Assembly (NCBI GenBank): GCA_028687915.1
Contig: JAQTZF010000001.1
Coordinates: 930,634 to 994,633 of the forward strand
From: Candidatus Daviesbacteria bacterium
GTDB lineage: Bacteria > Patescibacteriota > Microgenomatia > Daviesbacterales > UBA10151
DNA: 64,000 bases
Reading direction: 5' to 3'
In this document: positions 33,510 to 63,918 of the stretch, piece after piece
Layout: each line of letters starts with the position of its first letter
How positions within the stretch are numbered: the first letter of the stretch is position 1
Notes under the pieces: model-generated
What the model was told of the DNA's origin: nothing
Databases searched by the model: none
The model's input: only the letters and a program-made list of their open reading frames with translations
Program-made: the position numbers and the translations under genes

Positions 33510-33589
33510 AAGCAGCTATTAGTCTACATTTTTCAAAGAAGAGATGAAAGATAGTAAATTGGATTACAATCCTGAGCGTAGTCGAAGGG

Positions 33590-33979
33590 TTAGTCGTGAT
33601 GGATGCCCAATAAATGGGTAGTTCCGTGAGTCACCAAAAAATTAACTTCATCTTCAATTGATTTTCCATCTAAGGACGCGTCTTCTATAGCCTGAGGATA
33701 TGAAATAACAATAGATCCTAAACGTAAAATATTATCAGGAAAAGCAATAAATCCTGTACCATTTCCTTCTTCTAAACAAAATGATAAAACATCTGTCGTT
33801 TTATCAATCCCGCGGTATTTTTTATTTAATTCATGCATTTTTCTGTCCCCCACTACAGATACTTCAACTTCTACATGACTGGTGACTTTATGTTGAGCTA
33901 GTACATCAATAACAGCATCCTGAACTGCAGCGCGATTAACTTCATATCTGGGATCTGATGTAATAATTACGTTAACCAT
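33590..33979 (-). CDS. ybeY: Endoribonuclease YbeY (rRNA maturation factor)
   Basis: C-terminal metal-binding motif HGTTHLLGIHHD (HxxxHxxGxxH) and upstream DVLSF. Confidence 0.85.
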   Translation of the reverse strand: MVNVIITSDPRYEVNRAAVQDAVIDVLAQHKVTSHVEVEVSVVGDRKMHELNKKYRGIDKTTDVLSFCLEEGNGTGFIAFPDNILRLGSIVISYPQAIEDASLDGKSIEDEVNFLVTHGTTHLLGIHHD

Positions 33980-55011: not shown

Positions 55012-56877
55012 TTATTCTCCTAATATTTTTGCTGAGGCAGATGCAAAGTGAACCCCACCAAAATCACTCAAATGATTTTTATCCGGACTAAAGTACCAGG
55101 TGAAAATATCTTTTACAACCGGAGCTGAAACATTTGATCCTTCCCCTCCTTTTTCCAGTAAAACTGTAGCAGTTAATTGGGGATTATCTATTGGAGCATA
55201 TGAAGTATACCAAGCCTGTGTTTTACCAACCTCCCCTGTTTCTGCAGTTCCTGTTTTACCTGCTGTAGGAATAGTAAAACCAAAAAATGGCCAGGCTGTA
55301 CCTTGTGATTGCGGAACCCTTGATAAACCTGACTTAACCAAATCAATATCTGCTTTTTTAAAGATATTATTCACAAGTGGATCATATTTGAATTGTTTAA
55401 TAATTTGGTTATCAGCTTTACTAATAAAATCTACAACACTTGGACGAAGGAGTGTACCGCTGTTTGCAATAAAAGAAGTTTCAGATAATATTTGTAAAGG
55501 AGTCACCAGTACAAACCCCTGACCAATTGCCATATGCAAACTATCACCTGGATACCAAACATCACCAATATTTTTTTGCTTCCAAGCACCATCCGGAATT
55601 AAACCATCTGCTTCACCTGGTAAATCTATCCCTAACTTTTTACCCATCCCTAATTTTTTGGCTGTATCTCCTAAAGTTTTTTCACCAACCAGCGCTCCTA
55701 ATTGATAAAAGAAAATATCATTTGACCTTTCCAAAGCTTTTACCACATCAACCATTCCATCTGTTTTTCCAGAAGAAATAAAATACCAATTAGCAAAACT
55801 CCAGGTATCAATTTTCATTACCCCTGTATCTTCTATTTGTGTACTACCAGTAATTTTACCTGATGATAATCCTGCTAAAGCTGAGGCAATTTTAAATGTA
55901 GACCCGGGGGCATAAGTACCAGAAATTGCTCTATTTAGAAGGGGTGAATTTGGATCATTAAAATAATTACTAATCAAATTATTTTTTCCTGGATCAGTAA
56001 AAGCATTATTATCATAAGAGGGAATAGAAACCATTGCCAAAATTTGGCCGTTATTTGGGTTTTGCACAATAGCTGCACCACAACAAATTTTTTCCTTATT
56101 TATTGCAGTACTTAAATACTGATATGTTGCCTTTTGTAAGTCTAAATCAATACTTAAATGGACATTCTGACCAGGAATTGGCTCAACTCTACCCAAAGTT
56201 CGAAGCTTATTACCGGATGCATCTATTTCAATAATTTCTGCTCCATCAATTCCTTTAAGTACAGATTCATAAACTTGTTCTACTCCAGACCTTCCAATGC
56301 GGTCTCCTAATTTATAATTTTTATTTTGGGTGTCTTTTAGTTCATCCTCAGAGATTTGGCCCACATACCCCAACACATGAGAAATAGCTTCACCTTGTGG
56401 ATAACGCCTAATCGAATCAATTTCCAGTTTATTTAAGCTGGGATCTTGTTTTGCCTCAAACATTAAGGATTCATCCCTCGTTATAATATTTTTACCAATT
56501 CTAAATCCGGGAGTATTTTCTGCCAAAACTTTATTATTTCTATCATATATAACACCACGGTGGGCATGGATAACCTTCAGTTGAATTCTATTAGAGTCTG
56601 CCCTTTGCTTATTTTCTGCTCCCATTACCACTTGTAGGTGAAACAATCTAAAAAAGATGCCGGCAAAAATTATCATCATTATGCTGGCTAAAATAGCTAG
56701 TCTCCAGGGAGAATGGGTCCTGACATCATCATCTTCTAAATTATAATTTGGTATAAAAGTATCAGCCCATTCATCATCATTGTTTATTTTATGACGCTTA
56801 AAATGACCAAAAGGGTGAGTAACTTTAAATACTTCATCTTTAAAAGCATAACCTAACTTTTTTTGCTTTATTCTCAT
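55012..56877 (-). CDS. mrdA: Penicillin-binding protein 2 (class B transpeptidase)
   Basis: N-terminal TM helix, dimerisation domain, and transpeptidase motifs STFK (GSTFKIA), SxN and KTGTAE. Confidence 0.85.
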   Translation of the reverse strand: MRIKQKKLGYAFKDEVFKVTHPFGHFKRHKINNDDEWADTFIPNYNLEDDDVRTHSPWRLAILASIMMIIFAGIFFRLFHLQVVMGAENKQRADSNRIQLKVIHAHRGVIYDRNNKVLAENTPGFRIGKNIITRDESLMFEAKQDPSLNKLEIDSIRRYPQGEAISHVLGYVGQISEDELKDTQNKNYKLGDRIGRSGVEQVYESVLKGIDGAEIIEIDASGNKLRTLGRVEPIPGQNVHLSIDLDLQKATYQYLSTAINKEKICCGAAIVQNPNNGQILAMVSIPSYDNNAFTDPGKNNLISNYFNDPNSPLLNRAISGTYAPGSTFKIASALAGLSSGKITGSTQIEDTGVMKIDTWSFANWYFISSGKTDGMVDVVKALERSNDIFFYQLGALVGEKTLGDTAKKLGMGKKLGIDLPGEADGLIPDGAWKQKNIGDVWYPGDSLHMAIGQGFVLVTPLQILSETSFIANSGTLLRPSVVDFISKADNQIIKQFKYDPLVNNIFKKADIDLVKSGLSRVPQSQGTAWPFFGFTIPTAGKTGTAETGEVGKTQAWYTSYAPIDNPQLTATVLLEKGGEGSNVSAPVVKDIFTWYFSPDKNHLSDFGGVHFASASAKILGE

Positions 56878-56885
56878 TCTAAAAA

Positions 56886-57338
56886 TTATTTGCTATTAAC
56901 TTTTAACTTTATATCTTTATGAACAATAAATCTTTCTTCCCATAATAAAACCATAAAATATATTGGAATTATTAAAATTATTTGAACTGGAATTTGACCT
57001 AAATTAATATTTGACCCTAACATTAAAGCTCGTGCTAACTGGTCTGCAAGAAGTGAAACAGCAGCAACAGGTATCAAAATTAATGGATGTGTTACAAACT
57101 GAAATCTTCTAAATATATGAATTACTAATACAATTATTAAATAGATAATACTTAAACTACCTAAAGGATATCCTGCTAAAAAAGATAACACTAAACCAAA
57201 AATAAAAGCTAAATAATAATTTTCTTTTTCTGTAACAACAAAAGATCTGGAAACCAGTATTAACAACACCAAATTAAAAGGCAAAAAAGCTTCCTGTAAA
57301 AAGCTAAATAGTATTAAAATAAAAATTAAAGGTATCAT
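56886..57338 (-). CDS. mreD: Rod shape-determining protein MreD
   Basis: 150-aa polytopic membrane protein located between mreC and pbp2. Assigned mainly by position and topology. Confidence 0.55.
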   Translation of the reverse strand: MIPLIFILILFSFLQEAFLPFNLVLLILVSRSFVVTEKENYYLAFIFGLVLSFLAGYPLGSLSIIYLIIVLVIHIFRRFQFVTHPLILIPVAAVSLLADQLARALMLGSNINLGQIPVQIILIIPIYFMVLLWEERFIVHKDIKLKVNSK

Positions 57339-58120
57339 CTAATTAAAAAAACAGTATCTAAATCTACTAACTTAAAAATAGGTTCTACTTTAGCCTGCTT
57401 AAAAATTTCATTTTGTCTTTCTAATACTGCTGTTACTTTTCCTAAAACTAATCCCTTTGGTAATTTTCCTTCAGTACCCTCTGAATAAACTAAATCACCA
57501 ACATTAACTATTTCTTCATGTAAGATTTTATCCATTAACATTTCTGATCCAAATTGTCCTTGTAAAATCCCTTTAGCTCTGCCTAAAGAACCCTGTGAAA
57601 AGGCAGCTATTTTAGATTCCGGATCTGTAGCCATTATCACTTGAGCAGTTTTTGGTGTAACATTTTTTGTTTGTCCCAAATAATTATCTTTATAAACTAC
57701 TGCCTGTTGTTCGATAACCCCATCATTTAAGCCCTTGTCTAAAATCACATAACGTTCAACTCCTAAAACTCTGGCTGGCATTAAGTCAAAGGTTTGTGGA
57801 TTTAATTTGTTATATTGATCAACTAAATCCTCATTATCTTTAACTTTTTTTTGTAAAGCTGCATTTTCAGCAGCAATCAGAGCTAGTTGTTGCTTTAAAG
57901 CATTATTTTCTAAAGATGCTTTTCTGGCATTAACAATAAAATTAAATTGTTTTTTAAAATTAGTGCTGTTTTTATAAAGACCATATTGGACAGGAGTAGT
58001 TAAGGTTTGCAAAATACTTTTGGGGAAATTTAAGGCTCCCAAGCGATCAAAAACAAAAAGAAAGACAGAGCAAATAATTAAAATTATAAAAAGTTTGAAG
58101 TCTAATAAAATAATTTTCAT
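57335..58120 (-). CDS. mreC: Rod shape-determining protein MreC
   Basis: N-terminal TM helix, coiled coil (LKQQLALIAAENAALQKK) and C-terminal beta-rich domain. ATG start at 58120. Confidence 0.75.
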   Translation of the reverse strand: MKIILLDFKLFIILIICSVFLFVFDRLGALNFPKSILQTLTTPVQYGLYKNSTNFKKQFNFIVNARKASLENNALKQQLALIAAENAALQKKVKDNEDLVDQYNKLNPQTFDLMPARVLGVERYVILDKGLNDGVIEQQAVVYKDNYLGQTKNVTPKTAQVIMATDPESKIAAFSQGSLGRAKGILQGQFGSEMLMDKILHEEIVNVGDLVYSEGTEGKLPKGLVLGKVTAVLERQNEIFKQAKVEPIFKLVDLDTVFLIR

Positions 58121-58161
58121 CAAGGCTAATATACCATATTTAGCATGGTTATATCAGCCTT
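58120..58161 (-). promoter_or_regulatory. 42-nt imperfect hairpin abutting the mreC start codon
   Basis: CAAGGCTAATATACCATATTTAGCATGGTTATATCAGCCTTG has outer arms CAAGGCTAATATA / TATATCAGCCTTG (one mismatch) and an inner CCAT/ATGG stem. Confidence 0.4.
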
Positions 58162-58218
58162 GCGAGTTGATTAAATCAAGATTATCAGGATTAGTTGTTT
58201 TTTAAGCGATCTCTAAAT

Positions 58219-58839
58219 TTATACAACACCTTGTTCAACTAACACTTCTGCTAAACAATTTTTTACCATACCAACATCCTGCCATTCTCTAATCAATTCC
58301 CCTGATTCAGATTTTGTTTCATATAAAAAACGTTCTGAAGGTGCCTTTGAGGGGACTTTTCTTCCTGTAATTTTATCTATAATTCTATTCATTACTCCTC
58401 TTTCCTTAATTGCTAAACAAGCTATCCATAAACGAGGTCGCTCCATATTTGTCAGTTCTCGTCCTACAGAATCTGAAATAAAAGCTTTTGAAATTAATCT
58501 AACTGTATAATTTTTACCAAAAGCACGTAACCTTTTTGCATAGCTATATTCAATCACATCAATAAAACGATCATCATTTATAACATCACAAATATCGCTA
58601 TCTTCTGAAAATTTCCCTAAACCATCAAGGTGATCTCTATTAACTTCTGCAAAAAGATTATCTATAGTACTTTCATCTAACATTGCCTTGCACTGTGCTA
58701 GTGTTTTGCCTTGTCGGATTGTCTTCTTTAAACACTCATTAGCCAACATTAATCCTTCAGCACTAAATGGGCGTTGAGGTTGCTCAACTCTGCTATTACC
58801 TCTATTTTTTACTTCTTTAATTGCTTCTCTTAAACTCAT
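58219..58839 (-). CDS. Hypothetical protein (206 aa) inserted between mreB and mreC
   Basis: ORF with no assignable domain. Confidence 0.4.
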   Translation of the reverse strand: MSLREAIKEVKNRGNSRVEQPQRPFSAEGLMLANECLKKTIRQGKTLAQCKAMLDESTIDNLFAEVNRDHLDGLGKFSEDSDICDVINDDRFIDVIEYSYAKRLRAFGKNYTVRLISKAFISDSVGRELTNMERPRLWIACLAIKERGVMNRIIDKITGRKVPSKAPSERFLYETKSESGELIREWQDVGMVKNCLAEVLVEQGVV

Positions 58840-59033
58840 AAATATTTACATGTTAGATGTATAAAAGTTTATATTCTAGTTGAGAATTATTGTCAATAGT
58901 TTTACTTAATCCACCTGTGCTGTACACTTTTCAGATGGACAGTAAATTCCAGTGATATTTATATTTAGCCAGAGTAACCCTTTTTTGTATTTTAAAAATT
59001 GACTTTTTTAAGCCGATAGCTTATTTTTATGTT

Positions 59034-59591
59034 ATGTTTGACGAAAGAAAATATATAGAAAAGACGCCAAAAATGAATTTTACATACCCTGATTGGTGGC
59101 ATAGTCATGGTATGAAATTACATCTGAACCGAGCAGAGACAAATCTTGAACAAGTAACATTAGGTAGTTCAACTACAAGATTAATTATTTCCAGAAACGA
59201 AGATTCTCTTAATTTACCATGGAATATTCAATGGGCAGTCCTACATTTTTATGGTGAAACTGCAGCAGGTAATAGAAAAGTGAATCATGAAACACTTTTA
59301 ACTGCTTTTGGATTTAATAACGGAACTCCACAAGGATCAGAGTGGCTTATTAATAAATATGGCGGAACCTGTGCAGAACAAGGAGCTTTTCTTAGATATA
59401 AACAATTCTTAAACATCCCTTGCCCTGGTACTGGCAATGATGGAGATCCTAACCTTTCACTTTTTTTAGATACTAATATTCAACAAGCAGTCTTAAATCT
59501 TATGCCAAATGAGTATGTTTTAAAATTAAGAGGACAAATCGGAAAATATTTACTTTTACCATCAACTCCTACTGGGAGTAAATTATTTTAA
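59034..59591 (+). CDS. Hypothetical protein (185 aa), opposite strand within the mre cluster
   Basis: ORF with no assignable domain. It ends 9 nt before the mreB stop on the other strand. Confidence 0.4.
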   Translation: MFDERKYIEKTPKMNFTYPDWWHSHGMKLHLNRAETNLEQVTLGSSTTRLIISRNEDSLNLPWNIQWAVLHFYGETAAGNRKVNHETLLTAFGFNNGTPQGSEWLINKYGGTCAEQGAFLRYKQFLNIPCPGTGNDGDPNLSLFLDTNIQQAVLNLMPNEYVLKLRGQIGKYLLLPSTPTGSKLF

Positions 59592-59600
59592 GATGTTGGT

Positions 59601-60656
59601 TTACCTTAATCCTCCTGTCACCTTGACTCTGGACAGGAGATCTAAATCATCTAAAACTCTTCCACAACCTCTGACTACTGTAGTTAAAGGATCTTCTGCT
59701 ACATAAACAGGCATCTTTGTTTCTTCAGCTATTTTTTTATCTAAACCCTTTAAGAGCGAACCTCCACCAGTAATAGCAACCCCTCTTTCTAAAATATCAG
59801 AAACCAACTCTGGTGGTGTTTCTTCCAAAACTTCTGAAAGAGCTGTTACTATCTGATTAACAGTACCTGATAATGCTTCTCTAATTTCAACTGATGAAAT
59901 TTTAATTGATTTTGGTAAACCTGTTGATAAATCTCTTCCGCGAACAACAGTTTCTTTTTCTTCTTTTTGGGGGATAGCTGAACCAACTTCTATCTTTATA
60001 TTTTCTGCAGTTCTGTCACCAATTAACATTCCATATCTCATCTTCATATAGTTAATGATGTCTGCATCCAGTTCATCACCAGCAACCCGAAGAGATCTGT
60101 TTAAAACCATACCGCCAAGTGAAATCACAGCAATTTCTGTGGTTCCCCCACCAATATCCATAATCAAATTCCCTTCTGGTTCTTCAATAGGTAAACCAGC
60201 TCCAATAGCAGCTGCCATAGGTTCTTCAATTAGATAACATTGCCTGGCACCAGCAGATAAAGCTGCATCCTGCACAGCCCTTCTTTCTACTTCTGTAACC
60301 CCAGAAGGAATACCAACCACCACACGAGGTTTAGGAATTTTAGGAAATTTAAACCCATCTCCATGTTGTTTATGAACCAGCTGAATAAAATGACGCAACA
60401 TAGCTTCTGTGGTATCAAAATCTGAAATAACTCCATCACGAAGAGGTCTAACTGCTTCTATTGCTAAAGGTGTTCTACCCAACATTCTTTTAGCTTCACT
60501 TCCTATTGCTAAAACTTGTTTACTTTTTTTATGGATTGCAACAACAGATGGTTCACGAATTAAAATACCTTTTCCTTTAACCAACACCAAAGTATTAACT
60601 GTACCCAAATCTATACCAATATCGTGGGAAACAAGCTGCCAAAATTTGTCAAACAT
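59601..60656 (-). CDS. mreB: Rod shape-determining protein MreB (actin-like ATPase)
   Basis: Actin-fold phosphate-1/2 and adenosine motifs (GIDLGTVNTLV, DIGGGTTEIAVIS, GVAITGGGSLLKGLD). Confidence 0.9.
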   Translation of the reverse strand: MFDKFWQLVSHDIGIDLGTVNTLVLVKGKGILIREPSVVAIHKKSKQVLAIGSEAKRMLGRTPLAIEAVRPLRDGVISDFDTTEAMLRHFIQLVHKQHGDGFKFPKIPKPRVVVGIPSGVTEVERRAVQDAALSAGARQCYLIEEPMAAAIGAGLPIEEPEGNLIMDIGGGTTEIAVISLGGMVLNRSLRVAGDELDADIINYMKMRYGMLIGDRTAENIKIEVGSAIPQKEEKETVVRGRDLSTGLPKSIKISSVEIREALSGTVNQIVTALSEVLEETPPELVSDILERGVAITGGGSLLKGLDKKIAEETKMPVYVAEDPLTTVVRGCGRVLDDLDLLSRVKVTGGLR

Positions 60657-60756
60657 TTCAAGGTTGAGTGTACCAGAGACGCTTCCAAATCACAATGATA
60701 TTTGGTAGCATAAGCTATCAGTCTTCAGTATCGTTTCACTGTCAGCTTTCAGACTG

Positions 60757-60784
60757 TCTGACGACTGATGACTGACGACTGATG
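60757..60784 (+). repeat. Tandem 14-nt repeat (CTGACGACTGATGA x2) overlapping the ligase start codon, within a GACTGA/CAGTC-rich divergent intergenic region
   Basis: Read directly: ...tcagtcttcagtatcgtttcactgtcagctttcagactgtCTGACGACTGATGACTGACGACTGATGACTACAAG. Confidence 0.5.
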
Positions 60785-62956
60785 ACTACAAGAATCCTTA
60801 CAATTTCATTCTATATTCTTTTCTTTTTTACCCCGCTTTTTTGGTCACCTTATAATTTTGAACTTTTTGAATACAACAAAATGATGTTGGTGTATTTGCT
60901 AACTGTAATTATTACAACTGCCTGGATTTGGGAAATGATTTCAAAAAAAACTTTAATTTTAAAATCTACACCTTTAGATATTCCAATCTTACTTTTTTTA
61001 GGGGCAAATATTTTATCAACTATTTTTTCTATTGATCAGCATGTATCAGTATGGGGATATTATTCAAGATCTAATGGGGGACTCATTTCCATTATTTCTT
61101 ACACTATTTTATATTTTGCCTTTGTTTCAAACTTTACATCTGAATATGCAATTAAATTCTTAAAAGCAGCTGTATTTGGAGGTGTAATTGTTGCCTTATA
61201 TGCTATTCCAGAACATTTTGGAGTCTCCCCTTCCTGTGTAGTTTTAACCAACCAGCTCAGTGACAGTTGCTGGGTACAGGATGTTCAGACACGGGTCTTT
61301 GCCACATTAGGCCAGCCTAACTGGCTGGCAGCATATTTGGCAATGTTAATTTTCCCAGCCTTTTATTTCTTACTTACCAATACCAAAAAATCATTCTTTA
61401 ATCTTAACTCTTTATTCTTAATTCTGTTTTATATGGCTTTCACTTTCACCTATTCCAGAGGTGCAACTTTAGGATTACTAGGTGGAATGATAATATTTGT
61501 TGGTCTATTATTCTTCGAGGCCATCAAAGGTGGACGAGAAGTAAATACAAGTTCTCACTTTGTTCGAACAATAAAATCAAGTTTTCATGTTCTCGCTAGC
61601 ACTCGAACAATAAAATCAGTGCTGCTTATTCTTATATCTTTTGTAATCATTAATTTATTTTTTGGATCTGCTTTAACCAGCTTTAAATTATTATCAAAGT
61701 TTGCTCCACCTCCAAGAGGGGGGATAATTACACAAGTCCCAACAAGCGGAACTCAGCTGGAAAATGGCGGGACAGAATCTGGAGTGATTAGGTTAATAGT
61801 TTGGAAGGGAGCATGGGAAATATTTTTACATTATCCAATATTGGGAACAGGTGTTGAAACTTTTGCTTATTCTTATTATCAATTCCGCCCACAGGAACAT
61901 AATTTAGTTTCAGAATGGGATTTTCTTTATAACAAAGCACATAACGAATTTTTAAATTATCTGGCAAACACCGGTTTAGTAGGATTTTTAAGCTATATGG
62001 CCTTAATTTTAACTTTCATTTATTGGTCAGTTAAGAAAATCATTTTTTCCAAATCTGATAACTTGATTCTAATTATTATTTTAGCCTCAATCATCAGTTA
62101 TCATATTCAAAATTTCTTTGGTTTTTCTGTGGTAATAATCGCAGTCTTTTTCTATCTTTTCCCAGCAATAGCATTTATTACCACAAACTCAGTAAAACCA
62201 TTTGTATTGCCTAAACAATTCTTAATTCTATATAAAAAATCCTTATATACTAAGCTTGCAAAAACTGTTGTAATTACTATCTCCCTTTTATTTATCTTTA
62301 CTTTAATTAGGTATTATTGGGCTGATACTTATTTTGCTACTGGTAACAGTGCAAATGACTCAGGTAATCCAGGAAGAGCATATAATCAAATATATCAAGC
62401 AACTTATCGTAAAATTATATTTGGCTTAATCCCCTTTGGAAACACAAATGAACCTTATTACCACTCAGAACTTGCTTATTCAGCAGCTGCTTCTGCAGTA
62501 GCTTTAGCAGAAGAGGATGCCACAATCAGTGCTACATTAAAAGAAGAAGCAATAGAAGAAACTCAGAATGTTCTAAAAAATAACCCAAAGAATACTTCTT
62601 TTTATAGAACAGCTATTAGAACATATTACTTAATTTCTACATTGGATCCAAACTACACCCAAAAAACTTTAGATGTTTTAGATACTACTATTAAGTTAGC
62701 TCCAACTGATGCCAAACTAGTTTATAACAAAGCAATTATTTTAGGACAAGAGCCAGGTAAGAGCAAAGAAGCAATCGCAAGCTTAGAAAAAGCAATTGAG
62801 TTAAAACCAAATTACAGAGATGCGTATTACACATTAGGATTGTTTTATTTTGAGAATAATCAAAAACAAAAAGCTATCGAACAAATGAAAAAAGTTTTAC
62901 AACTAATCCCAAATGATCCAGAAGCATTAGAAAAGCTAAAAGAATGGGGTCAATGA
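60782..62956 (+). CDS. O-antigen ligase (Wzy_C) family polytopic membrane protein with C-terminal TPR repeats
   Basis: Wzy_C signature region (YNKAHNEFLNYLANTGLVGFLSYMALI) within about 12 TM helices. C-terminal TPR units (EKAIELKPNYRDAYYTLGLFYFENNQKQKAIEQMKKVLQLIPNDPEAL). Confidence 0.7.
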   Translation: MTTRILTISFYILFFFTPLFWSPYNFELFEYNKMMLVYLLTVIITTAWIWEMISKKTLILKSTPLDIPILLFLGANILSTIFSIDQHVSVWGYYSRSNGGLISIISYTILYFAFVSNFTSEYAIKFLKAAVFGGVIVALYAIPEHFGVSPSCVVLTNQLSDSCWVQDVQTRVFATLGQPNWLAAYLAMLIFPAFYFLLTNTKKSFFNLNSLFLILFYMAFTFTYSRGATLGLLGGMIIFVGLLFFEAIKGGREVNTSSHFVRTIKSSFHVLASTRTIKSVLLILISFVIINLFFGSALTSFKLLSKFAPPPRGGIITQVPTSGTQLENGGTESGVIRLIVWKGAWEIFLHYPILGTGVETFAYSYYQFRPQEHNLVSEWDFLYNKAHNEFLNYLANTGLVGFLSYMALILTFIYWSVKKIIFSKSDNLILIIILASIISYHIQNFFGFSVVIIAVFFYLFPAIAFITTNSVKPFVLPKQFLILYKKSLYTKLAKTVVITISLLFIFTLIRYYWADTYFATGNSANDSGNPGRAYNQIYQATYRKIIFGLIPFGNTNEPYYHSELAYSAAASAVALAEEDATISATLKEEAIEETQNVLKNNPKNTSFYRTAIRTYYLISTLDPNYTQKTLDVLDTTIKLAPTDAKLVYNKAIILGQEPGKSKEAIASLEKAIELKPNYRDAYYTLGLFYFENNQKQKAIEQMKKVLQLIPNDPEALEKLKEWGQ

Positions 62957-63240
62957 AAAAGATTGGCCAGATTATAGACAATCAAAAACATCCGGACAGA
63001 CCTAAAAATCTATCAACTGAATTTCAGGTTTATGGAGTTTATTTGGCGGAAGAATTAAATGATACCAAACATTATTCCTTGTATATTAAATTAGCAAAAG
63101 TTACTCCCAGGGCTTTACTTGATGAAGCTTTAACTTATACAAAAGGTTATCTGAATGCTAAAAATAAAGGCAAGGTTTTTATGTGGAAGCTCAAACAGCT
63201 TAAAACTGAGCTTTTACTTAGAACTAAAATTTCTGATTAG
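62944..63240 (+). CDS. Hypothetical small protein (98 aa)
   Basis: Overlaps the ligase stop; no motifs assigned. Confidence 0.3.
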   Translation: MGSMKKIGQIIDNQKHPDRPKNLSTEFQVYGVYLAEELNDTKHYSLYIKLAKVTPRALLDEALTYTKGYLNAKNKGKVFMWKLKQLKTELLLRTKISD

Positions 63241-63918
63241 AGTACCTCGTTTAGAAGCCCTATAGCGCTGAATAGATGTGGGCACAAAAGGCCTGATAGA
63301 GCCAGCATTAACTAAACTATGTTGGTGATTTTGTTTATCAATATGAACTACAACAGGTGAATGTGCAACTGATTCTGAATCTACAGGCTGAAAATGTACA
63401 ACAAACATTCTTTCATTTTCAAAATCTGGATCAACCTTAGTAAAAATCGCTTTACTACCTGCAAAATTACTACGCAATCCTAAATCAATTTGTTTTTGCA
63501 GTTGTTCAGGTGTTAAGGGAATACCTCTTAATGAAAGTCCATACTGACGAGGTAAAACCAAACCACCTTTTACCACAATAGCTTCATGGGAACGTTTTTT
63601 ATCACACAATCGAACAGCTTCAGGCTGAAAAGATCTAATCAAGCGGTGTTGAAATGCTTTAAAACCACGACGGTAACGAGAAATCTGATGAATATCAATT
63701 CTTTCTTCACTAATTAAACTTAAATTTGCCTGTTTATCACGAATATTTAATAGGTGAGGAGTCCAAAATCTTTGTTTTCCACCCTCAATATGAAAGATCC
63801 CATTTGGATTAAGACAAGCTTTATCTCCATAGACTTCTATTTCATCTGTTAATGAAGCTTGTACAGCCAAGGCCTCTCCTGGATGAAATCCATTAATATA
63901 TGAATAGATTTCTGACAT
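63214..63918 (-). CDS. Hypothetical protein (234 aa)
   Basis: Long ORF, His/Arg-rich, no family assigned. Confidence 0.4.
   Translation of the reverse strand: MSEIYSYINGFHPGEALAVQASLTDEIEVYGDKACLNPNGIFHIEGGKQRFWTPHLLNIRDKQANLSLISEERIDIHQISRYRRGFKAFQHRLIRSFQPEAVRLCDKKRSHEAIVVKGGLVLPRQYGLSLRGIPLTPEQLQKQIDLGLRSNFAGSKAIFTKVDPDFENERMFVVHFQPVDSESVAHSPVVVHIDKQNHQHSLVNAGSIRPFVPTSIQRYRASKRGTLIRNFSSK

Follow-up and report, generated by a model that had tools for sequence, protein, structure and literature searches.

Two genes of unrelated, uncharacterised protein families in the variable mreB–mreC spacer of a Candidatus Daviesbacteria genome

The DNA analysed here is a 64-kb stretch (the window) of a Candidatus Daviesbacteria genome, a member of the Patescibacteria or Candidate Phyla Radiation (CPR), with a GC content of ~33%. 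This report concerns the spacer between its cell-shape genes mreB and mreC, which contains two open reading frames (ORFs) and a hairpin. The mreB gene lies on the minus strand at 59601–60656 (351 aa; Pfam MreB_Mbl, 1.6e-142) and is separated by 1477 bp from a second set of minus-strand genes comprising mreC (57335–58123; Pfam MreC, 1.4e-27), an ORF in the mreD position (56886–57338) and pbp2/mrdA (55012–56877; Pfam Transpeptidase, 2.6e-61, and PBP_dimer). The ORF in the mreD position has no Pfam match and was assigned from its position and from tblastn conservation. The ORF finder places the mreC start at TTG 58123, but conservation of the start region favours ATG 58120 as the likely start codon. 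Together, mreC, mreD and pbp2 form an operon-like run, and the order mreC-mreD-pbp2-dprA is kept in relatives. mreB is not followed directly by mreC in the window; the intervening genes are ORF185 (59034–59591, plus strand, 185 aa), which is convergent with mreB, the two stop codons being 9 nt apart, and ORF206 (58219–58839, minus strand, 206 aa). A 42-nt inverted repeat (I23; 58121–58162, minus strand) forms a hairpin, the 3' arm of which ends on the TTG preceding the mreC ATG. This arrangement of genes and strands had been described in an earlier note made from the sequence, and was confirmed by the ORF listing and by Pfam. The absence of a recognisable domain from both ORFs, also claimed there, was upheld by searches of Pfam, PHROGs, PADLOC and NCBIfam, none of which returned a match at E ≤ 1 for either protein. 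The layout, both ORFs and the hairpin are real and beyond chance. The possibility of a compositional island was rejected, as the GC content of ORF185 and ORF206 equals that of the surroundings and base composition is uniform over the region. No paralogue of either ORF was detected within the window.

MreB relatives were scanned in one genome per species, yielding 80 loci with 10-kb flanks. Spacer statistics were compiled from 44 related Daviesbacteria loci, in which spacer ORFs were clustered and representatives run against Pfam. The order of O-antigen-ligase-like gene, mreB, spacer and mreC-mreD-pbp2-dprA is kept throughout Daviesbacteria. In these loci the shortest mreB–mreC gap is 53 bp and the longest 8.9 kb; the gap measures 0.7–8.9 kb in 42 of the 44 species genomes and is below 0.3 kb in just two. 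By clustering, confirmed by Pfam, the spacer carries a PyrE-like phosphoribosyltransferase in 38 of the 44 loci, orotidine monophosphate decarboxylase (PyrF) in 34, dihydroorotate dehydrogenase (PyrD) in 32 and dihydroorotase (PyrC) in 14, often with a haloacid dehalogenase (HAD) hydrolase and sometimes with pyrB (loci L015–L081, for example L036:5889–11100). The earlier view that other genes very seldom break up mreBCD thus fails in this lineage. Since mreB and mreC are separated in nearly all relatives, usually by pyrD, pyrC, pyrE or pyrF, interruption is the rule in the group, and the DNA separating the two genes is a variable spacer rather than an operon junction. None of pyrD, pyrC, pyrE and pyrF was found in the 64-kb window. 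The closest relative, L014 (96% aa identity in MreB, 88% aa in MreC and 83% nt in mreB), has a gap of 221 bp and contains neither ORF185 nor ORF206 as determined by tblastn and hidden Markov model (HMM) searches. The same searches found no relative of either ORF at any of the 80 MreB-anchored loci (L014–L093), so that the two genes show a presence/absence polymorphism among relatives. As separate observations, spacers in the window's subclade are reduced or empty, and the spacer between mreB and the O-antigen-ligase-like gene (window 60657–60781) also varies across L014–L093, from ~60 bp to ~5 kb by tblastn coordinates.

A promoter for mreC was predicted by consensus scan at 58128–58157 on the minus strand, comprising an extended -10 element TGGTATATT with TATATT at 58128–58133 and a weak -35 box, CTGATA, at 58152–58157. 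The distance from the -10 box to ATG 58120 is 7 nt, a leaderless-type geometry. Across relatives, 40 of 46 loci have the pattern TGnTAnnnT (mostly TGGTATATT) 7–14 nt 5' of the mreC start, often together with a TTGTCAA-type -35 box; the pattern was seen in 2 of 46 control windows. Because this extended -10 box is so widely conserved, the mreC-mreD-pbp2 run is predicted to have its own promoter across the Daviesbacteria group, and mreC in the window is accordingly not without a promoter motif of its own. The geometry further suggests that the mreC-mreD-pbp2 mRNA is probably leaderless or nearly so. The proposal that an insertion now uncouples mreB from mreCD expression was not borne out; the conservation of the mreC promoter makes the uncoupling ancestral and not a consequence of the two ORFs. 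Separately, both ORF185 (59022–59034) and mreC (58120–58133) show a -10-like box ending 6–7 nt before the start codon with no Shine-Dalgarno sequence, which suggests that leaderless transcripts may be common in this Candidatus Daviesbacteria. A literature search returned nothing specific on mre gene order or leaderless transcription in CPR bacteria.

ORF185 belongs to a family of 58 homologues of 145–200 aa in Patescibacteria metagenomes, and a scan of metagenome contigs located relatives encoded at 116 loci. In the family alignment the residues LNIP-PGTG-DGDPN-S are invariant and P-W-H-HG nearly so, giving the two family motifs PxWWHxHG and LNIPCPGTGxDGDPN. The start at 59034 is backed by N-terminal homology with P0004. 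The C-terminal tail is non-conserved, is modelled at low predicted local distance difference test (pLDDT) values, and is encoded by a region containing a terminator-like hairpin with a T-run (59565–59589, plus strand) within the last ORF185 codons, identified by consensus scan and sequence. A promoter-like site identified in the same manner at 58999–59027 on the plus strand (TTGACT-17 nt-TATTTT) leaves 6 nt between its -10 box and the ATG, again a leaderless-type geometry, and would drive ORF185.

The AlphaFold (AF2) model of ORF185 has a pLDDT of 89.2 and a predicted template modelling score (pTM) of 0.82, and consists of two consecutive four-strand-plus-helix units. No significant match was found in the PDB, by Foldseek or by sequence profiles, or in BFVD. 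The predicted topology resembles the beta-beta-beta-beta-alpha repeat folds of the PUR-alpha/PC4/Whirly type, and homologues of PUR-alpha and PC4 are among the weak top Foldseek matches (TM 0.17–0.25, root-mean-square deviation 11–15 Å, E 0.025–0.5). ORF185 carries no sequence signal of such folds, and the resemblance is a lead rather than a match.

The genomic contexts of ORF185 homologues are heterogeneous, as is the Pfam census of neighbouring genes, and no conserved partner gene was found in about 83 loci. A general link between ORF185 and mreB was rejected, since just one of 80 metagenome loci has mreB within 6 kb of an ORF185 homologue. RecG, ComM, ComFC-like, DprA and, once, RecA genes adjoin members of the family in contexts of which perhaps six are independent (L001, L163, L156/L165, L123/L154/L175, L011–L013 and L107). 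By our expectation this is above chance, the contexts being few and partly non-independent, and it gives a weak hint that ORF185 may be linked to DNA uptake or recombination. A gene family of 105–117 aa precedes ORF185 homologues in L009 (590–943) and L181 (110–427); in L024 (11435–11740, minus strand) it lies directly downstream of mreB as another shuffled resident of the hotspot.

ORF206 was at first taken for an orphan, as a word-index search returned the protein alone. An exhaustive HMMER search overturned this status, identifying four relatives (P0060–P0063) of about 28–49% identity that align over the full length. The family is rare and fast-evolving, with five clusters known. The AF2 model has a pLDDT of 84.6 and a pTM of 0.73, and no structural relative was found in the PDB by Foldseek or sequence profiles. 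A promoter-like site precedes the gene at 58868–58896 on the minus strand (TTGACA-17 nt-TATAAA), identified from the sequence and from alignment A4. Homologues elsewhere are found after rarA (L096) and beside a BrnT/BrnA module and comEC (L097–L100).

ORF185 and ORF206 are therefore assigned, from their alignments, to two real, conserved, unrelated and uncharacterised protein families. Pfam searches with all members of both families gave no meaningful match. Both folds are predicted with confidence and match no solved structure, which makes them candidate new folds. The two families do not co-occur in any of ~95 loci outside the window. Neither ORF matched a defence or toxin-antitoxin system in PADLOC, Pfam or NCBIfam, and no conserved pairing was seen. 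A phage or prophage origin was rejected, as PHROGs and IMG/VR viral contigs were negative for both proteins, and the BFVD fold search was negative for ORF185. Because the families are unrelated, scattered in context, never paired elsewhere and missing in the closest relative, the two genes appear to be dispensable and not parts of the Mre machinery. We consider it likely that both are dispensable accessory genes in a variable spacer, that mreC-mreD-pbp2 is served by its own promoter, and that no shape operon has been disrupted. Apart from the repeated place of ORF206 behind mreB, there is no specific tie of the two genes to the Mre system. The suggestion of a small mobile or accessory insertion therefore stands insofar as these are uncharacterised, lineage-restricted accessory genes; the accompanying idea that they separated mreB from mreCD does not.

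Several points weigh against this interpretation. In three related lineages, those of the window, L094 and L095, a gene of the ORF206 family follows mreB, a siting that could reflect a functional tie beyond shared ancestry, and L009 has an ORF185 homologue of 52% identity that is likewise convergent with mreB. Both the promoters and the leaderless start are predictions from sequence. The spacer contains no recombinase and mreB shows no mosaic signal, and the mechanism of insertion is deduced from the direct repeat alone. The difference from L014 may represent loss there or gain here. The view taken is of 64 kb, and pyr genes could sit elsewhere in the genome.

The history of the spacer was examined through the repeats that it contains. 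At 58902–58949 on the minus strand, 48 nt represent a decayed duplicate of the final ~14 mreB codons, with a 6-nt insertion and a 1-nt deletion. This pseudo-3' end repeats 59601–59642, includes direct repeat D3 (17 of 20 nt matching 59599–59618), and was aligned (A4) with the true mreB 3' ends of L095, L014 and L009. Two short contigs, L094 and L095, represent the mreB-downstream spacers of other relatives. In L095, the mreB 3' end is followed by a TTGACA promoter, a 384-aa gene, an ORF206 homologue, pyrE, pyrF and then the same mreC promoter and start as in the window. In L094, the mreB 3' end is followed by the same promoter as in L095, a 219-aa gene, an ORF206 homologue and a 34-nt element, termed E. 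The promoter-like site ahead of ORF206 is homologous to the one placed directly after the true mreB stop codon in L095 and L094, so that the minus strand of the window reads pseudo-3' end, L095/L094-type promoter and then ORF206. Because the pseudo-3' end and then a promoter of the mreB-downstream type precede ORF206, this gene was probably once directly behind mreB.

Where most members have pyr genes, the spacer of the window contains ORF206 and ORF185 as independent modules of one gene each, both with a promoter-like site. In the proposed sequence of events, ORF206 would be the older resident, as its promoter is the one that in the usual arrangement comes next after the mreB stop codon. The ORF185 module would have been added later, together with a fresh mreB 3' end, by recombination at the 3' end of mreB, and the old 3' end would have been displaced to become the decaying 48-nt direct repeat. 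From the direct repeat we infer a single crossover, either Campbell-type or site-specific.

Further copies of the MreB C-terminus were found in related spacers. In L014 and L080, copies of VTGGLR* are present beyond the 3' end of mreB; L181 contains a 30-nt MreB C-terminus fragment (RVKVTDGLR) beside an ORF185 homologue in the absence of mreB itself. Overall, three forward matches versus no reverse matches were obtained in 244 kb of spacers. Two candidate scars in L014 were revised. Codons reading 'SFV*' were dropped as an ORF206 remnant, as the same bases are part of element E. A 42-nt duplicate first considered mreB-derived as a whole was trimmed to its last ~6–7 codons, its 5' part being a separate GC-rich motif found elsewhere. 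This motif, (C)CTGAGCGAAGTCGAAGG, is 17–18 nt long and recurs in several Daviesbacteria, both in intergenic positions after mreB and as an in-frame 'PERSRR' insert in pyrF. Its sites are L014:11066–11089, L080:11066–11175, window 33569–33590 and the pyrF ORFs at L038:~13254, L071:~14108 and L074:~10749, and it may be a small mobile hairpin element.

Element E lies at 58193–58226 on the plus strand of the window, with the consensus TTGTATTTTTTAA[GC]CGATCGCTGATTTTATACAA, and overlaps the ORF206 stop codon. A degenerate copy (E2) at the ORF185 start (58985–59033, plus strand) was compared by eye with the copies of L181 and L014 and has the core TTTTTTAAGC in common (repeat D16). Element E occurs at the same place in L014 (11120–11156), after the ORF206 homologue in L094 (1398–1451), upstream of it in L095 (~1290–1325), in L009 (~470–505), and three times in L181 (50–88, 428–464 and 1281–1315), where the copies bracket two small genes. 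The window contains one copy in addition to the degenerate one. None was found elsewhere in the other ~2 Mb of loci or in viral contigs, and the sites are confined to the ends of small accessory genes of the hotspot. By eye, its symmetry is limited to 6-bp terminal arms and a CGATCG centre, and it forms no attC-like hairpin.

These observations bear on an alternative in which the modules are mobile cassettes, single-gene circles integrated at the mreB 3' end by a recombinase encoded elsewhere, with E marking their boundaries. Such a system would account for the direct repeats of the mreB 3' end flanking the ORF185 module, for the MreB fragment carried by the E-bracketed ORF185 homologue of L181, for the extra VTGGLR* copies in L014 and L080, and for the restriction of E to these modules. 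The alternative is nevertheless unlikely. Neither of the two spacer genes encodes an integrase or recombinase domain, E lacks an attC-like structure, and the modules are in mixed orientation, each with its own promoter. Moreover, most ORF185 homologues across Patescibacteria lie at unrelated sites without an MreB fragment, the L014 and L080 copies adjoin the separate GC-rich hairpin motif that is also found elsewhere, and homologous recombination between relatives accounts for the same repeats. In a more far-reaching version, a cassette system not described so far would use the mreB 3' end for attachment. E-bounded modules (ORF185, ORF206 and the 105/117-aa gene) would then be excised and re-inserted, either through a trans-acting recombinase or, once DNA has been taken up, through loop-out and loop-in driven by homology, the last MreB codons would be copied each time, and ORF185 could itself be a DNA-uptake or recombination factor with a new fold. 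We regard this version as speculative and very unlikely. Recombination that added the ORF185 module to a variable spacer of accessory genes is the preferred account.

The hairpin abutting the mreC ATG was reproduced as the earlier note had described it. It folds at -24.3 kcal/mol with a z-score of -6.9, and 0 of 200 shuffled sequences fold as well. Its 3' arm is the conserved -10 and start region of mreC, and its 5' arm is an inverted near-copy of that region which occurs in this genome alone. The equivalent regions of L014 and L095 give z-scores of 0.3 and 0.8, no better than shuffled sequence. The hairpin is therefore best described, from the sequence comparison, as a young, genome-specific inverted duplication of the mreC promoter and start region. 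A regulatory role in mreCD-pbp2 expression, whether as an attenuator, terminator or translational occluder in RNA or as an operator in DNA, might be expected of so stable a stem, which spans the mreC promoter from the -35 box to the start codon and which would sequester the bases immediately 5' of the AUG in any RNA reading through from ORF206. This role is quite unlikely, as L014 and L095 keep the promoter without the 5' arm. As regards a terminator, no U-tract follows the stem, which is A+U-rich with the tail AUGAAAAU, and the hairpin is not among the sites reported by the terminator scan. An Rfam search of the spacer and hairpin gave no family match and one chance-level hit. Should mreC mRNA start at or about the ATG, in line with the promoter geometry, the hairpin would lie outside the mreC transcript and be present in ORF206 read-through RNA alone. 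Attenuation, raised earlier as a question, is thus not supported by conservation. At most, the hairpin possibly insulates the mreC promoter from ORF206 read-through.

It was also considered whether the MreB/MreC elongation machinery has a lineage-specific accessory in ORF206, by itself or together with ORF185, that is kept by mreB for co-regulation. ORF206 is on the same strand as mreB and mreC and lies between them, has family members behind mreB in the lineages given above, and uses a promoter of the type found immediately after the mreB stop codon. However, it is missing from L014 and from all 80 MreB-anchored loci, and other members of the family are found after rarA or beside BrnT/BrnA and comEC. 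Members of the family share 32–49% identity, compared to 72–96% between the window's MreB and other Daviesbacteria MreBs. ORF206 has no transmembrane segment or known Mre-interacting domain, Pfam and NCBIfam gave no match to known MreB/MreC partners (RodZ, MreD, RodA and others), and the models of both ORFs are soluble alpha/beta proteins. Such a role is therefore very unlikely, and the cell-shape function suggested in the earlier note is not favoured for either gene, given their absence from L014, the rarity of mreB near ORF185 homologues and the other neighbourhoods of ORF206. That both ORFs are decaying leftovers without function is highly improbable: L014 lost or never had them and the spacer retains scars (the pseudo-3' end and the degenerate E copy), but both keep long, unbroken reading frames at a genomic GC content of 33%, align over their full length with homologues that keep invariant motifs, are predicted to adopt confident folds and are preceded by promoter-like sites. 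Residence as intact, dispensable accessory genes remains the favoured interpretation for both.

Two additional features were recorded on the far side of mreB. ORFs of 98 aa (62944–63240, plus strand) and 234 aa (63214–63918, minus strand) lie just beyond the O-antigen-ligase-like/tetratricopeptide repeat (TPR) gene and have no significant match in Pfam, PHROGs, PADLOC or NCBIfam. Short tandem-like repeats (gactgatgactgacgactgatgact) are present at 60740–60790, covering the start of the 724-aa O-antigen-ligase-like gene and the DNA immediately before it.

These results correct an assumption carried over from model bacteria, in that mreB and mreCD appear from their sequence context to be separate transcription units in this CPR group. 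Since they are split by a variable spacer, arguments from gene order about the rod complex should not be applied here. Two conserved families with confident predicted folds and no structural relatives have been defined, and the small recombination hotspot, with its recognisable scars, is usable for the study of gene flux in uncultured, reduced genomes. The locus has no direct bearing on a major open question.

The spacer was compared with three known systems. Genomic islands at tRNA and tmRNA (transfer-messenger RNA) genes bring with them a new 3' end for the target gene and give rise to a direct repeat. The spacer resembles genomic islets at gene 3' ends in its variable content between conserved flanks, in the direct repeat of the target 3' end (58902–58949 versus 59601–59642) and in its presence/absence polymorphism. 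It differs in that the target is protein-coding, the modules are single genes of 0.6–0.7 kb, no integrase is present and the composition is not anomalous. Integron cassettes and the pdif modules of Acinetobacter are small gene modules bounded by short recombination sites, and the single-gene modules with a recurring short boundary element E are similar to these. Unlike them, the spacer has no intI or Xer gene nearby, E lacks attC- or dif-type architecture, the genes have their own promoter-like sites in divergent or mixed orientation, and any mobility of the modules is putative. The canonical mreBCD-mrdAB cluster of model bacteria shares its genes, order and orientation (mreB, mreC, mreD, pbp2) with the window; Daviesbacteria differ from it in having a variable spacer, usually with pyr genes, and a predicted mreC promoter that abuts the start codon.

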